The notes beneath the pieces are model-generated. The model was not told the DNA's origin. It saw only the letters and a program-made list of their open reading frames with translations, and searched no databases. The translations under genes and the position numbers were made by a program. 64,000 bases of DNA from a virus (Duplodnaviria; Caudoviricetes). Location of the stretch: positions 96,001 to 160,000 of the IMG/VR virus record IMGVR_UViG_3300050142_000050; one strand, written 5' to 3'. Numbering within the stretch: position 1 is the first letter of the stretch; each line of letters opens with the position of its first letter. Positions 8,656-49,940 of this stretch are shown one piece after another.

Positions 8656-8686
8656 TGACAGAGGGGGCGATGAGCCCCCTCTGTCA
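8656..8686. terminator. Bidirectional hairpin between convergent genes
   Basis: tgacagagggggc-gatga-gccccctctgtca, 13-bp stem. Confidence 0.65.
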
Positions 8687-29149: not shown

Positions 29150-29175
29150 CACTCCTCCCCATGTGGGGAGGAGTG
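29150..29175 (-). terminator. Hairpin between 29182 and 29087 genes
   Basis: cactcctcccc-atgt-ggggaggagtg. Confidence 0.55.
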
Positions 29176-29181
29176 GTATCA

Positions 29182-34650: not shown

Positions 34651-34678
34651 TAGGGAGAGGGCTCACGCCCTCTCCCTA
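34651..34678 (+). terminator. Hairpin terminator
   Basis: tagggagagggc-tcac-gccctctcccta, then cttcattttat. Confidence 0.7.
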
Positions 34679-34720
34679 CTTCATTTTATGCTTTGTTACT
34701 CGAATTAGAGGATAGCCCAC

Positions 34721-45586: not shown

Positions 45587-46114
45587 TCAAATAGGGTCAT
45601 ACTTCCCATTCTTAATGGAACTATCGGTGAGCATACGTCGCGTCAGATCGGTAGCTAACTTGTCGGCCATGTCATTGAGTTTGTCTCCACTATGAGATTT
45701 CACCTTGACATAACGACATGACTTTAGCTTATCGATCTTTGCTCCGATCTCTCTGATGAGATCGGCATTCTTGATGGGCTCCCCATTGACCCCTATCCAT
45801 CCACGCTTAGCCCACATCTTCCTCCACACAAAGAGGGAAGCAAGCGTATAAGCACTGTCACTATAGATGACCACTGTCTCCAGATCAGGTAAATCCAGAG
45901 CATAGTTGACGGCCATCAATTCCATCTGGTTGATGGTAGCTCCACGGTGAGCATAGGCAGCAGTATGGACGATCTTCTTATTGATATCGTCCCACACTAC
46001 ATAAGCGCATGATGATGCATCGGGTCGTCTGTGCGATCCGTCAGTGTAAATGTGGACTACAGATGGAATCTTCTTGGGGAGATCTGCATCTTTGGTTTCC
46101 ATGGTGATCTCCAT
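45587..46114 (-). CDS. rnhA: Ribonuclease HI
   Basis: IYTDGS, TINQMELMAV, IYSDSAY, NADL and VKSHSG...NDMADKLA include the D-E-D-D catalytic set. Confidence 0.93.
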   Translation of the reverse strand: MEITMETKDADLPKKIPSVVHIYTDGSHRRPDASSCAYVVWDDINKKIVHTAAYAHRGATINQMELMAVNYALDLPDLETVVIYSDSAYTLASLFVWRKMWAKRGWIGVNGEPIKNADLIREIGAKIDKLKSCRYVKVKSHSGDKLNDMADKLATDLTRRMLTDSSIKNGKYDPI

Positions 46115-46153
46115 TCATTCTCTATCAAACCATGGTCGCCCTATAGGGAAAAT

Positions 46154-46196
46154 AAAACCAGAATCAATTATTTTCAACACTATATCACCACAGTGA
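46154..46196 (+). promoter_or_regulatory. Putative strong early promoter with upstream AAAACCAGAATCAA element
   Basis: aaaaccagaatcaa-N6-tcaac-N2-tatatcac-N5-tg, duplicated at 49154-49196. Confidence 0.75.
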
Positions 46197-46248
46197 AGTT
46201 AAGGTAATGAATAGTTCGTTATCTCAATTTCATCAAGGAGAATGTCCC

Positions 46249-46458
46249 ATGAAGATTCTGCACAAGCTCTCGATGAAGGCCAACATCGCAACGCACTCGC
46301 TGATCTCGAGCACTAAGACTGTGGTGTCGTCCTACAAGAACGATCCCACGTTCCGCTCCAATGTGAACATGATGGGTATCGCCTTCATCTATGGCGCCGC
46401 GACATCACACAACTACCACACTCGCAAAGCCCGCAAGGCTGCGAAGAACAAAGCCTGA
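46249..46458 (+). CDS. Small basic early protein (69 aa)
   Basis: AAGGAG ribosome-binding site before ATG 46249. Confidence 0.7.
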   Translation: MKILHKLSMKANIATHSLISSTKTVVSSYKNDPTFRSNVNMMGIAFIYGAATSHNYHTRKARKAAKNKA

Positions 46459-46469
46459 TCAAACTGGCG

Positions 46470-46509
46470 TCCTACGTGGTGTGGGGATATTCCCCACACC
46501 ACTATTGAA
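46470..46509 (+). repeat. Internal-loop hairpin element 1
   Basis: TC-CTAC-gtggtgtgggga-tat-tccccacaccac-TATT-GA. Confidence 0.8.
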
Positions 46510-46538
46510 ATCAGTTATACACCTCAAGGAGAATCAAC

Positions 46539-46727
46539 ATGTTTGGTATCAAGAAGGCTATAGTCAACGCCTCGCAAGTCAAGAATCACATCAGAGGTGA
46601 CATCGAACTCCGCATCAGAGCCACTGATGCATTTGCTGCCTTCGGTGAAGGCTTCGGTGTCGGTCTCATCGCATCGATCCCAGTAGCGATCGCATTCATC
46701 ACCATCGCCAAGAAAGCCATCAAGTGA
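46539..46727 (+). CDS. Membrane microprotein (62 aa, C-terminal TM)
   Basis: AAGGAG ribosome-binding site; FGVGLIASIPVAIAFITIA-KKAIK. Confidence 0.8.
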   Translation: MFGIKKAIVNASQVKNHIRGDIELRIRATDAFAAFGEGFGVGLIASIPVAIAFITIAKKAIK

Positions 46728-46732
46728 CTATC

Positions 46733-46775
46733 TTCCTACGGACTGTGATCTTGTCCTAATCACAGTCCTATTGAA
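46733..46775 (+). repeat. Internal-loop hairpin element 2
   Basis: TTC-CTAC-ggactgtgat-N9-atcacagtcc-TATT-GAA. Confidence 0.8.
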
Positions 46776-46805
46776 CATAGTTATCAAAAATCAAGGAGAA
46801 CACCC

Positions 46806-47237
46806 ATGTCCACCATCGCCTGCTTCTCACCCAAGATCGTCCGTCAGGGTAATAAGCATATCGTTATCATGAACCCCTTCGCGAAGCCCGCTAATGTGGG
46901 TCGTCGATTCGTCGAAACAATCGGATACACCGAAACGAAGGATCTCCTCTCGCTCAACTCGTACGATATCGAAGAGCGTGAGTTCGAATACTTCTCGCCC
47001 TCCTACCAGTACGCTTATGCTGAGTTTATGGAGCGTCCGGATGCTAAGGAGATCCTGGGTCGTATCATTGAAAATGCTATCCACCTCAACGCCAAAGAAG
47101 CTCGTGCTCACATGACTCACAACAACGCCAGTGAACCGATATACAACACCGACTGGTCGCAGTTCACGATCTCGATCGACACTCTCTACCAGATCCATGC
47201 ACAGACTGCCGAAATGGTAGTCGACTCATTCAAGTAA
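46806..47237 (+). CDS. Early hypothetical protein (143 aa)
   Basis: AAGGAG ribosome-binding site. Confidence 0.8.
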   Translation: MSTIACFSPKIVRQGNKHIVIMNPFAKPANVGRRFVETIGYTETKDLLSLNSYDIEEREFEYFSPSYQYAYAEFMERPDAKEILGRIIENAIHLNAKEARAHMTHNNASEPIYNTDWSQFTISIDTLYQIHAQTAEMVVDSFK

Positions 47238-47245
47238 ACACTATT

Positions 47246-47285
47246 TTCCTACGTACTGCGGGTATTAACCCGCAGTACTATTGAG
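47246..47285 (+). repeat. Internal-loop hairpin element 3
   Basis: TTC-CTAC-gtactgcgggt-atta-acccgcagtac-TATT-GAG. Confidence 0.8.
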
Positions 47286-47305
47286 CATAGTTTAAGGAGG
47301 TCCTT

Positions 47306-47668
47306 ATGAACTTCATCATTCATACCGTTGTGGCCATGTTTATCACTCAGCTAATTATGGTAGTCTTCACCTTCTCGAAATTGACACGTCCGTACAAGGA
47401 CATCCCACTCAAGAACAAGGTGATCTTTGTCCTGGCCAACGTCGGCGTACTGCTGACCCTATCTACGCCGATTCTGATCTTCGCTTTGACGAAGGTTCTG
47501 TTTCTCGGGGTCGTTGCGATTATCGCGTCATTCACTGTATTTTCAGTCGTCATCGTAATGGATGTCGCGGGTCATGACCTGGGCGTTGATGTGAAATCAG
47601 ATTTGATGCGTTGCAACCGCATCTCGTACATTCTCAGCTGCGCATCATTCGGTCTCATCGGCCGGTAA
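47306..47668 (+). CDS. Small multi-pass membrane protein (120 aa)
   Basis: AAGGAGG ribosome-binding site; three to four hydrophobic stretches. Confidence 0.8.
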   Translation: MNFIIHTVVAMFITQLIMVVFTFSKLTRPYKDIPLKNKVIFVLANVGVLLTLSTPILIFALTKVLFLGVVAIIASFTVFSVVIVMDVAGHDLGVDVKSDLMRCNRISYILSCASFGLIGR

Positions 47669-47693
47669 CCCAACTCCAATAAGGAATATCACC

Positions 47694-48056
47694 ATGTCTC
47701 ACCCTGACGTCGACCTGCGCACTGCGCGTGATGTATTCGGCAAACATGCCAAATCGATCTTCAACAAGGAAACCTATTATCCTTCGATCGATGAGAAGAC
47801 AGCTTCTCGCTCGGGTATTCCCGAATGCGATCGTGTCCTCTTCAACAAGTTGACCAAGCGGATCATCGATGATCCCGATTGCGATATCACTAAGGCTGAG
47901 CTGGCGGTCTTCATGTCCGTCCGTAAGACCTTTCCTGAGATCGGTGTCGAAATCGACTACATCGTCAAGACCAACAAGTATCGCAAGCCCATACTGGGCG
48001 GTATCATCGGAACCCTGATTACGGCCGTGGGTGTCCTGGCCTTCATCAATCGCTGA
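47694..48056 (+). CDS. Tail-anchored membrane protein (120 aa)
   Basis: C-terminal ILGGIIGTLITAVGVLAFI-NR. Confidence 0.8.
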   Translation: MSHPDVDLRTARDVFGKHAKSIFNKETYYPSIDEKTASRSGIPECDRVLFNKLTKRIIDDPDCDITKAELAVFMSVRKTFPEIGVEIDYIVKTNKYRKPILGGIIGTLITAVGVLAFINR

Positions 48057-48057
48057 C

Positions 48058-48095
48058 CTCTTACATGGGTAGGAATATTCCTACCCATCATTGAG
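48058..48095 (+). repeat. Internal-loop hairpin element 4
   Basis: CTC-TTAC-atgggtagga-atat-tcctacccat-CATT-GAG. Confidence 0.8.
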
Positions 48096-48126
48096 CTCAA
48101 TGAAAAGCTCTCCAAGGAGAATACAC

Positions 48127-48306
48127 ATGTCTGACAACAATACCAACAAAGAGTCCATCGAGTCCATCCGCGAAAAGACCCAGCTCTATGAAAAGCTGGC
48201 TGAAGCTCATCGCGAAAAGCGCCAGCTCAAGGAAGAGGTCGCCAAGGGCACCATCCTGACGGCAGTCGCATGCTCGCTCTATTTCATCTTCGGTCTCAAG
48301 AAGTAA
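48127..48306 (+). CDS. Membrane microprotein (59 aa, C-terminal TM)
   Basis: AAGGAG before ATG 48127; GTILTAVACSLYFIFGL-KK. Confidence 0.75.
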   Translation: MSDNNTNKESIESIREKTQLYEKLAEAHREKRQLKEEVAKGTILTAVACSLYFIFGLKK

Positions 48307-48320
48307 GAAAGGTTTTCACC

Positions 48321-48500
48321 ATGACCCCCCAGAACAATCAGTCGGAACTCGACATCGCCAACGAAAAGCTCGAAAAGGCCAAGGCCGCTTTCACCGAAGC
48401 CGCTTCTGACAGCGAGCGCACCTCCAAGCGCGAAGTGGTGGCCGGCGCTGCTTCGATCACGGCCTTCGGGATCCTGATCTATCGGGCCTTCTTCTCGTAA
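48321..48500 (+). CDS. Membrane microprotein (59 aa, C-terminal TM)
   Basis: AAAGG before ATG 48321; VVAGAASITAFGILIY-R. Confidence 0.75.
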   Translation: MTPQNNQSELDIANEKLEKAKAAFTEAASDSERTSKREVVAGAASITAFGILIYRAFFS

Positions 48501-48508
48501 CAACATTC

Positions 48509-48550
48509 CTCTTACATGCATAGGGGCATTTGTCCCTATGCATCGTTGAG
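48509..48550 (+). repeat. Internal-loop hairpin element 5
   Basis: CTC-TTAC-atgcataggg-N8-ccctatgcat-CGTT-GAG. Confidence 0.8.
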
Positions 48551-48575
48551 TGATGTAACAACTCAGGAGTGAAAA

Positions 48576-48740
48576 ATGGATAACGAACAACTCAATGAAA
48601 TTGAAGAGCATGACCGCTACAACAAAGCAGCCATTCGCTTCAACACCACACTCGACGCCGCCGGCGCGGTACTGATCACCGCCGCAGGTCTCTGTCTCTC
48701 CGCAATCGCGATTCTCGCGACCAAGCGAATTTCCAAGTGA
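48576..48740 (+). CDS. Membrane microprotein (54 aa; not in the ORF track)
   Basis: AGGAG ribosome-binding site; MDNEQLNEIEEHDRYNKAAIRFNTTLDAAGAVLITAAGLCLSAIAILATKRISK. Confidence 0.75.
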   Translation: MDNEQLNEIEEHDRYNKAAIRFNTTLDAAGAVLITAAGLCLSAIAILATKRISK

Positions 48741-48748
48741 GGACTACC

Positions 48749-48880
48749 ATGGACAACAACGAACCCGCCTACACCCCCGAGCAGCTCAACTCCAAGACCG
48801 CGGCGATCTACATCGGTGCCGCATGGGGAGCGATCTGCTTCGCCATCGGATACTTCGGTGTCCGCGTCATCAATAAGTAA
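48749..48880 (+). CDS. Membrane microprotein (43 aa; not in the ORF track)
   Basis: GAGGA ribosome-binding site; MDNNEPAYTPEQLNSKTAAIYIGAAWGAICFAIGYFGVRVINK. Confidence 0.75.
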   Translation: MDNNEPAYTPEQLNSKTAAIYIGAAWGAICFAIGYFGVRVINK

Positions 48881-48896
48881 TCGGAGAGGATTACAC

Positions 48897-49025
48897 ATGG
48901 AAGATCGTGCAGAAGAAAAAGCTCCCAATCCCGACAACCGGGACAAGGAGTTCGTCCTGGGGCTGGGTAGTGTGGTAGCACTCCTCGCATCCATCGTTTG
49001 TCTCACCTCGGTATTGCGGAGTTAA
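48897..49025 (+). CDS. Membrane microprotein (42 aa)
   Basis: GAGAGGA ribosome-binding site; MEDRAEEKAPNPDNRDKEFVLGLGSVVALLASIVCLTSVLRS. Confidence 0.7.
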   Translation: MEDRAEEKAPNPDNRDKEFVLGLGSVVALLASIVCLTSVLRS

Positions 49026-49030
49026 ATACC

Positions 49031-49150
49031 ATGGAAGAAGCACCAAAGAAGACCCTCGAGGTCGTCGTCAATGTCTCGAACAAGGCCGTGATCCTGGGTA
49101 GCCTGTCTGCCCTGGTGACTGGCGTGATCTACGGGATTCTCAATCGCTAG
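49031..49150 (+). CDS. Membrane microprotein (39 aa; not in the ORF track)
   Basis: GGAG ribosome-binding site; MEEAPKKTLEVVVNVSNKAVILGSLSALVTGVIYGILNR. Confidence 0.7.
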   Translation: MEEAPKKTLEVVVNVSNKAVILGSLSALVTGVIYGILNR

Positions 49151-49153
49151 ATC

Positions 49154-49196
49154 AAAACCAGAATCAAAAAATATCAACCTCATATCACAACTGTGA
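49154..49196 (+). promoter_or_regulatory. Second copy of the putative early promoter
   Basis: aaaaccagaatcaa...tcaacct-catatcac-aactg-tg, near-identical to 46154-46196. Confidence 0.75.
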
Positions 49197-49249
49197 ATGG
49201 GGAAAACAATCCTGTTCTTTTCAATCATCTTTTTTGAGTGGAGCTCAAC

Positions 49250-49609
49250 ATGTCTATCACCAACAACGATTCCGCCGACCTGAACAACAACGGCGACAAC
49301 AACAGCCGTGCCAACAAGAAGGTCGAGTCGAAGACCACGACCGCCAAGAGCGAAGACGGCTCGAAGACCACCACCACGACGGTGGAAACCGAAACCGAAG
49401 TCAAGCCCGGTCTGTTCGGTCGTCTCTTCGGCACCATCGCCCGCAACCCCGTCAAGTCGACCGTCGTGGTCGCTGCTGTGGGCACGGGTGCATACTTCGG
49501 CTACAAGCACTTCCAGTCGGCCGGCGAAGTCGTCGTGGCCACCTCGGATGTCGTCGAAGAATCGGCTGAAGTGGCCGTCGAAACCGCGGCTGCCTTCTTC
49601 GGCCGCTGA
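49250..49609 (+). CDS. Single-TM protein (119 aa) with polar N-terminus and acidic Ala/Val tail
   Basis: GGAG before ATG 49250; strongly GC3-biased codons; TVVVAAVGTGAYFGY. Confidence 0.8.
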   Translation: MSITNNDSADLNNNGDNNSRANKKVESKTTTAKSEDGSKTTTTTVETETEVKPGLFGRLFGTIARNPVKSTVVVAAVGTGAYFGYKHFQSAGEVVVATSDVVEESAEVAVETAAAFFGR

Positions 49610-49660
49610 TACCTCTACCACAATAACCGTGGGTCGCATCACTAATAGGAGGTAATCGAC

Positions 49661-49723
49661 ATGATTGCCATGATGATCAATCTGCTGATGAAAACCTCTT
49701 CGGTTATCACCGGTAAGAAATAA
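49661..49723 (+). CDS. Putative 20-aa peptide MIAMMINLLMKTSSVITGKK
   Basis: Preceded by AGGAGGT at good spacing. Confidence 0.45.
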   Translation: MIAMMINLLMKTSSVITGKK

Positions 49724-49733
49724 GGAACGAACG

Positions 49734-49856
49734 ATGGAGAAGACTTCCTCTATTGTCGGAACCATCGTCGTATTCGGCCTCGCCATTTATGGCGCGATCG
49801 ATTTGGGCTACAAGATCCTCACGATGTCGCGCAAGCTCAGCGAATACGACGAGTGA
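49734..49856 (+). CDS. Membrane microprotein (40 aa, N-terminal TM; not in the ORF track)
   Basis: AAGGA ribosome-binding site; MEKTSSIVGTIVVFGLAIYGAIDLGYKILTMSRKLSEYDE. Confidence 0.7.
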   Translation: MEKTSSIVGTIVVFGLAIYGAIDLGYKILTMSRKLSEYDE

Positions 49857-49860
49857 TAGA

Positions 49861-49903
49861 GTGGTGGGGGCATATGCCCCCACCACCTTATCCTTTATTT
49901 TTT
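49861..49903 (+). terminator. Terminator closing the early cassette
   Basis: gtggtgggggca-ta-tgcccccaccac followed by a displaced TTTATTTTTT. Confidence 0.75.
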
Positions 49904-49940
49904 GTCTTCATTGTATGTCACCCGATAGAGGGAACCTATA

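Follow-up and report, generated by a model that had tools for sequence, protein, structure and literature searches.

The stretch of DNA considered here, a window of 64,000 nucleotides (nt) that corresponds to bases 96001–160000 of one 249,638-bp contig (IMG/VR record IMGVR_UViG_3300050142_000050), comes from a phiKZ-like jumbo phage and contains, in a putative early operon of small genes, five copies (E1 to E5) of an intercistronic hairpin element of ~55 nt, in which a perfect upper stem of variable sequence stands on a nearly invariant 4x4 internal loop. Together with further copies elsewhere in this genome and in two other phage contigs they form a sequence family that we tentatively regard, with somewhat less than even confidence, as sites at which early mRNAs are processed by a host enzyme of the RNase III type and are left with stabilising 3′ hairpins.

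The motif TCYTAC-[perfect 10–12 bp stem]-YRTTGA occurs on the plus strand of the window at 46470, 46734, 47247, 48059 and 48510, and a pattern search finds no further site elsewhere in the 64 kb, nor on the minus strand. All five hairpins of which a preliminary description had spoken were thereby found again and fold as claimed, with z-scores of −5.2 to −6.7 against dinucleotide shuffles and predicted energies of −21 to −30 kcal/mol. The full genome carries ten copies, every one on the plus strand (TAC at genome positions 92339, 92739, 142473, 142737, 143250, 144062, 144513, 194779, 198366 and 204472), and pattern scans of IMG/VR add four more in two contigs, which brings the total to 14. Three of these lie in a 40.5-kb fragment of 41% GC (G002), the proteins of which are 32–61% (mostly 40–52%) identical to and syntenic with those of the genome region 182–229 kb; the phage to which it belongs co-occurs with the present one in the same samples. 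The remaining copy lies in a complete 58-kb phage of 57% GC with terminal repeats and a P22-like portal (G001). This phage has no protein in common with either jumbo phage and no RNA polymerase (RNAP) among its largest open reading frames (ORFs), and the core of its copy is nearly identical to that of the jumbo-phage elements. Element positions are non-orthologous between the two related jumbo phages, and near-identical copies of 35–40 nt are found in different operons.

A covariance-model scan, which the preliminary description had called for, extends the family in the same way. Built from the five window copies only, the model retrieves exactly the nine others at 42–62 bits, and as the next best site reaches 24 bits, chance is excluded as an explanation. 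The model of all 14 copies scores its members at 55–67 bits (66.9 bits for E1) and the next best site at 25 bits. This gap, present with either model, indicates that the family is discrete and has no degenerate copies. A MAFFT alignment of the five copies misaligned two stems, and a model-guided alignment was used instead. Further pattern scans of IMG/VR yielded no additional copy, those of JGI metagenome contigs and GTDB genomes gave chance matches only, without hairpins, no element was found in more distant phages reached via the small subunit of ribonucleotide reductase, including a complete 308-kb phage, and Rfam covariance models gave no relevant match in window 45900–49300 at E up to 1.

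From its base upwards the element consists of a lower helix of 5–6 bp, a 1x1 mismatch, 3 bp (NUC/GAN), the 4x4 loop YUAC/YRUU and a perfect upper stem of 10–12 bp capped by 3–9 nt. The outer helix of 5–6 bp is present in all five window copies, which refutes the earlier statement that only three possess one. In 14/14 copies the 4x4 loop sits 10–12 bp below the apical loop, and in 13/14 the 1x1 mismatch follows 3 bp below the 4x4 loop. The predicted helix amounts to 19–22 pairs, four loop positions and one mismatch, i.e. about two turns, and is backed by covariation: in the 14-copy alignment 95% of the cells are paired, compensatory changes occur in 17 of the 19 pairs, and the upper stem is Watson-Crick in all 140 cells. 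None of 500 shuffles matches the observed pairing and covariation, and slid registers are also far off.

The conserved core reads N-U-C, Y-U-A-C, stem, Y-R-U-U, G-A-N. Its eight loop nucleotides and the three pairs beneath them are nearly invariant, the single replacement of U-A by C-G, at the second of these pairs, being compensatory, whereas the upper stem varies. Even so, the stems are not wholly unrelated, contrary to what had been stated along with the conserved loop and the covariation, both of which stand: GTGGTGTGG recurs in four copies, ATGGGTAGG recurs in four copies and in both jumbo phages, and two subtypes can be distinguished, CCUAC-G..C-UAUU (A) and CUUAC-A..U-CAUU/CGUU (B). The pair G24–C39 is invariant, and U18–A45, G19–C44 and G25–C38 are nearly so. 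All G-U and U-G pairs belong to the lower helix, where the opposite strand would carry A-C mismatches, and the minus strand of the same sites scores 19–25 bits versus 55–67 bits for the plus strand; both observations argue for strand-specific reading, either of RNA or of one DNA strand. Judged by this pairing, the signal appears to be read on the plus strand, which is the mRNA strand. Two further ideas were set aside. CCUAC/UAUUG can be likened to the 11-nt GAAA tetraloop receptor, CCUAAG/UAUGG, which would need a G17–U47 pair in place of the covarying pair 17–46, and anti-Shine-Dalgarno (SD) pairing, in which a UUCCU flank would bind the downstream SD, is weak, and subtype B lacks it.

The position of the elements relative to genes is equally regular. 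All 14 copies are co-oriented with the flanking genes, and in all 14 the upstream stop codon begins 6–17 nt before TAC, in or at the 5′ arm of the lower helix; an SD-led ATG begins 21–39 nt after the motif in each of the 12 copies that have a called downstream start. The earlier observation that the elements lie between a stop codon and the next SD and ATG and have no T run is borne out for all five window copies. The motif tcATAT(T/C)ACCAnnGTGAA occurs at 12 genome sites, all on the plus strand and never at an element; four are in the window at 2213, 46182, 49182 and 58022 (genome 98213, 142182, 145182 and 154022) and eight outside, and the copies at genome 91636 and 142182 share a leader of ~40 nt as well. 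Early promoters of the virion RNAP (vRNAP) of phiKZ-like phages consist of a conserved AT-rich box, 6 nt and a G (PMC5312081), and the form of the motif, which fits this rule, suggests that it is an early promoter. Going by such predicted signals, seven of the ten genomic copies are bracketed by a promoter-like motif on one side and the first tailed terminator on the other, and no further promoter motif intervenes; two follow the motif at 91636 and five that at 142182. The other three belong to a long run of plus-strand genes after the promoter motif at 189840, where extra hairpins blur the transcription units. No promoter motif is present between an element and the next gene; the downstream genes have none of their own, and transcription must therefore pass through the elements.

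Genome-wide, ~80 GC-rich hairpins with a G-rich 5′ arm and mostly a tetraloop were found (e.g. window 49861–49906, 8656–8686 and 34651–34690), ~65 of which carry CTATCCTTAT and a T-run tail on one or both strands and are the phage's own terminators. This tail is lacking at every element. The elements are also not at the ends of transcription units, given that SD-led genes follow at the short distances mentioned and do so without a promoter motif. Two terminator-type hairpins on the minus strand, at genome 74395–74429 and window 29150–29178, are flanked by UAC...UAUU, have no lower helix and score 24–25 bits; they may be intermediates between terminators and elements.

If the elements are processing sites, the transcribed element would fold into a quasi-continuous helix of about two turns, broken by the 4x4 loop 10–12 bp below the apical loop, and a host double-strand-specific endonuclease, most likely RNase III, would bind this helix. 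The loop would block a double cut and confine the enzyme to a nick in one strand, probably the 3′ strand of the loop. What remains at the end of the upstream cistron would be the perfect upper hairpin, which is terminator-like and would block 3′ exonucleases, and the downstream cistron would start 20–40 nt before its start codon with its SD free. Much as in the early region of T7, the operon would be divided into units that are each stable and translatable on their own. The preliminary description had proposed processing or protein-binding sites that split the early transcript, and the intercistronic and co-oriented placement, the promoter-to-terminator setting and the T7-like architecture speak for this; that the operon is transcribed as one unit, which enzyme acts, and that and where it cleaves is what we infer. 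The recognition boxes of E. coli RNase III fit an 11-bp helix, internal loops limit its cleavage to one bond, and such single-bond cleavage leaves a protective 3′ hairpin (PMC1540722), and an excess of RNase III sites has been found in the intergenic stretches of transcripts (PMC6212723). A host reader is favoured over an RNAP or another factor of the jumbo phage because one copy resides in an unrelated phage that shares no proteins with it and has no RNAP among its largest ORFs. That 58-kb phage appears to use the host RNAP, and since it shares no proteins with the others, a phage-encoded reader common to all three phages was rejected. No phage-encoded RNase III was found in the jumbo phage.

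Several points weigh against processing by RNase III. A fixed internal-loop sequence is not known to be required by bacterial RNase III. Eight loop nucleotides and three flanking pairs that are strictly kept in phages of 41–57% GC point to a reader with sequence specificity, possibly a different protein. Catalysis by E. coli RNase III is suppressed if a G-C pair adjoins the scissile bond (PMC1540722), and in subtype A such a pair is next to the loop, where it would be an antideterminant if it lay beside the scissile bond. Furthermore, the element sequence is unrelated to the T7 sites, there is no G-U pair among the 140 upper-stem cells, which is unusual for a helix selected purely as RNA, and the unrelated phage could have acquired its lone copy by transfer, as a passenger without function.

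The likeness to T7 was examined on hairpins folded in the present analysis at what we take to be the coordinates of the RNase III sites R0.3, R0.5, R1, R1.1 and R1.3. At these coordinates an upper stem of 9–13 bp with a loop of 3–5 nt, an internal loop and a lower stem are found, and the 3′ side of the loop reads UAUGAU at four of the five, as compared with UAUUGA in the elements. The elements share with the early region of T7/T3 the repetition of intercistronic hairpins in a polycistronic early mRNA (a presumed transcript in the case of the elements), an upper stem of ~10 bp with a small loop above an internal loop and a lower stem, the lack of a U tract, a U/A-rich 3′ loop side and the 3′ hairpin expected on the upstream message (PMC1540722). 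They differ from T7 in that there is no sequence similarity beyond the architecture and the UAU on the 3′ side. Moreover, the T7 loop is asymmetric and the upper stem conserved, whereas the element has a symmetric 4x4 loop of near-invariant sequence, and it is the upper stem that varies. The host and the transcribing polymerase, presumably a multisubunit vRNAP for the elements, differ as well, and cleavage of the elements is a prediction. A further precedent is SP82, a phage with a Gram-positive host, in which the host RNase III likewise acts at conserved hairpins that separate early cistrons.

The same strictness of the loop could instead mean that a sequence-specific protein other than RNase III, encoded by the host or possibly by the phage, binds the RNA at the 4x4 loop and its flanking pairs without cutting it, and tunes how the cistrons on either side are translated, how stable the mRNA is or how it is handled; we consider this possible but unlikely. 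Such a protein would account for loop nucleotides and three pairs below that hardly change while the upper stem does, for the 1x1 mismatch kept in 13/14 copies and for the stop codon in or at the lower helix with an SD-led ATG 21–39 nt after the motif (12 copies), and the succession of loop, helix and mismatch recalls the bulge-helix-bulge that E. coli RNase III binds without cutting (PMC1540722). However, a phage-encoded reader is unlikely, given that the jumbo phages and the 58-kb phage share no protein, no known operator or ribosomal-protein site in Rfam matches, and there is no candidate protein. In a more speculative form, which we rate as rather improbable, the 4x4 loop would be the site of a new sequence-specific factor, either a host protein other than RNase III or an early-mRNA factor of nucleus-forming phages, and the element would be a mobile punctuation mark that passes between unrelated phages of one host and carries regulatory competence with it. 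Rather improbable, too, is a transcriptional pause site or an attenuator, at which partial termination would make expression fall off in steps through the early operon. The upper hairpins do resemble the phage's terminators in their G-rich 5′ arm, their mostly 4-nt loops and their 10–12 bp, and in related jumbo phages conserved hairpins that carry a short tail serve as terminators. The hairpin terminators of phiKZ and 201phi2-1 are likewise GC-rich, of ~10–12 bp, mostly closed by tetraloops and repeated genome-wide (PMC10914365, PMC11512511), the present phage's own version of this style, in ~65 copies, putting the G-rich and not the C-rich arm first. In contrast to these, the elements have no pyrimidine/TTAT tail and no T run, but a lower helix and a conserved loop, and they are inside operons and not at their ends. 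Against a pause site, the elements lack the tail and T run seen at the phage's own terminators, read-through must be the rule since the downstream genes have no promoter motif, pausing does not need a conserved lower helix and loop, and one copy is located in a phage that apparently uses the host RNAP. Still less probable is a passive intercistronic stabiliser or insulator, i.e. a stable hairpin that stops exonucleases or RNase E scanning without any specific reader. The high stability (−21 to −30 kcal/mol) and the position at cistron boundaries speak for it, but a barrier of this kind would place no constraint on the eight unpaired nucleotides, the mismatch and the three defined pairs that are kept in phages of 41–57% GC.

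Comparison with related sequences bears on events at the DNA level. Over 3.1 kb, strain variants from two runs show 18 differences to the window, none of which affects a stem or an internal loop and four of which are in the apical loop of E5, where changes occur at 48526, 48529, 48530 and 48533 only. They convert GCATTTGT into ACAAATGC, its exact reverse complement; the change is a flipped perfect palindrome, a DNA-level event that left the asymmetric flanks untouched. The flip shows up as four clustered 'single-nucleotide polymorphisms' (window 48526–48533). With the apical loop inverted in strains and the stems and internal loop unchanged, the sequence of the apical loop is therefore unconstrained. 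A 531-bp ENA contig of ~90% identity has the 3′ half of E2 unchanged (0/34 positions differ) and is without E3 and the 120-amino-acid (aa) gene that follows it. This deletion has its left breakpoint within the element, immediately behind ACTATTTTCC, and its right breakpoint in plain spacer, where it is microhomology-like; it is the single case of this kind, and one of its two ends is in an element. Searches with the proteins encoded around the elements returned, apart from the 531-bp contig, only near-identical copies and no other diverged relative.

A passive role as a recombination-prone repeat, possibly beside an RNA function, is possible. That the elements serve primarily as DNA-level motifs for recombination or shuffling, in the manner of PeSLs or attC sites, with the small genes as exchangeable cassettes, seems very improbable to us. 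It would agree with the loss of an element and the next gene in the 90%-identical relative, the left breakpoint being inside the element, with the near-identical 35–40-nt copies in different operons, the non-orthologous positions in two related jumbo phages and the nearly identical core in an unrelated phage, and the hairpin flip shows that DNA-level events do occur at the palindrome. Yet the right breakpoint of the lone deletion is outside the elements and microhomology-like, and the G-U pairs, the constant orientation, the conserved loop, which is not palindromic, and the set distances from stop codon and SD point to RNA. In the PeSL cassettes of T4-type phages, repeated intergenic stem-loops also flank small ORFan early genes in variable regions (PMC2839356, PMC4122927), and the one indel breakpoint within an element may be a further likeness. 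A PeSL, however, combines a terminator-like stem-loop with an early promoter and its proposed role is in recombination, whereas the elements have no internal promoter motif and show constraints at the RNA level. Like integron attC sites, the elements are imperfect hairpins, conserved in their flanks and variable in their centres, that are placed between small genes without promoters. Unlike attC sites they have no R''/L''/L'/R' boxes or extrahelical bases, their stems are perfect with TCYTAC/YRTTGA as flanks, and their fold uses G-U pairs and is tied to stop codon and SD. A tyrosine recombinase (PF00589) is absent from all three phage records, in searches with positive controls. The attC-like alternative of the preliminary description fails on these grounds: no recombinase, strand-specific G-U pairing and no attC features.

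The sequence family is new, having no Rfam match and no relevant match in the literature, and a full-text literature search returned no report of RNase III together with a jumbo phage or phiKZ. Phage intercistronic processing hairpins as a kind are already known from T7 and SP82; new are the 4x4 loop, which is both symmetric and conserved, the location in early operons of a jumbo phage that has its own virion RNAP and the copy in an unrelated phage. The family represents a compact and testable candidate signal for the processing of early polycistronic mRNA in nucleus-forming (phiKZ-like) jumbo phages. If cleavage does take place, the T7/SP82 paradigm would extend to a very different transcription system, and the element could be used as a portable part for intercistronic processing and insulation. 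Should the reader be some other factor, the conserved loop would represent a new module by which proteins recognise RNA.

The elements and genes of the operon in the window are compiled in the table. The genes that flank the elements are ORFans, most of them with a C-terminal hydrophobic segment.

Table. Features of the element-bearing operon and its surroundings (window coordinates)
Feature	Position	Strand	Remarks
Putative early (vRNAP-type) promoter-like motif, ACCAGAATCAA...ATATCAC-6N-G, at the head of the operon	46157–46197	+	One of 12 motif copies; predicted
First operon gene, 83 aa, ORFan, no PHROG match	46207–46458	+	From the ORF list
E1, subtype A, upper stem 12 bp, loop UAU	46462–46516	+	−29.5 kcal/mol, z −6.0
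Gene, 62 aa, C-terminal hydrophobic segment	46539–46727	+	
E2, subtype A, upper stem 10 bp, 9-nt loop; upstream TGA inside the lower helix	46725–46783	+	z −5.2
Gene, 143 aa, ORFan	46806–47237	+	
E3, subtype A, upper stem 11 bp, tetraloop	47240–47291	+	z −6.7
Gene, 120 aa, multi-pass hydrophobic; no element in the 25-nt spacer behind it	47306–47668	+	
Gene, 120 aa, C-terminal hydrophobic segment	47694–48056	+	
E4, subtype B, upper stem 10 bp ATGGGTAGGA, tetraloop	48050–48103	+	z −5.9
Two 59-aa genes (48127–48306, 48321–48500), both with C-terminal hydrophobic segments	48127–48500	+	
E5, subtype B with CGUU, upper stem 10–14 bp, 8-nt apical loop	48503–48556	+	z −6.4
Four close-packed small genes without elements, end of operon	48576–49150	+	
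Next copy of the promoter-like motif	49157–49197	+	
Canonical terminator of the phage (GC hairpin, CTTATCCTTTAT, T run), for contrast	49861–49906	+	

Just upstream of the early operon and divergent from it lies an RNase H gene (PHROG 531, PF00075; window 45587–46114, minus strand). At the other end, a putative 254-aa minus-strand ORF without family match (49022–49786) overlaps the promoter-like motif at 49182–49197 on the plus strand and the last small plus-strand gene; perhaps not all of these features are genuine.

A promoter inside the element was considered and rejected, as the early motif never occurs there and the YATTGA/TATTGAC box has no −10-like partner at the elements. Elsewhere, TATTGAC is found 50–55 nt upstream of several larger genes with a TAnnnT-like box ~16–19 nt later (window ~16974, 30378 on the minus strand, 41744 and others), and this box may belong to a sigma70-like or a second phage promoter class. 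TATG is enriched ~2-fold 20–50 nt upstream of start codons, as is the case with the promoters of the non-virion RNAP of phiKZ.

The genome, of 50.6% GC and with split multisubunit RNAP genes, was recovered from leaf-litter metagenomes. Its closest named relatives are less than 30% identical, and no relatives of its RNAP subunits were found above 30% in GenBank phages, nor any in IMG/VR. The same hairpin with the same left flank is present at both contig ends (genome 101–126 and 249599–249624), and the contig is therefore probably a complete genome, either terminally redundant or circularly permuted. The large subunit of ribonucleotide reductase measures 958 aa in the 40.5-kb fragment (L101:4434–7307) versus 622 aa here (genome 186637–188505), and since the extra part contains a LAGLIDADG-like block, it is probably an intein.

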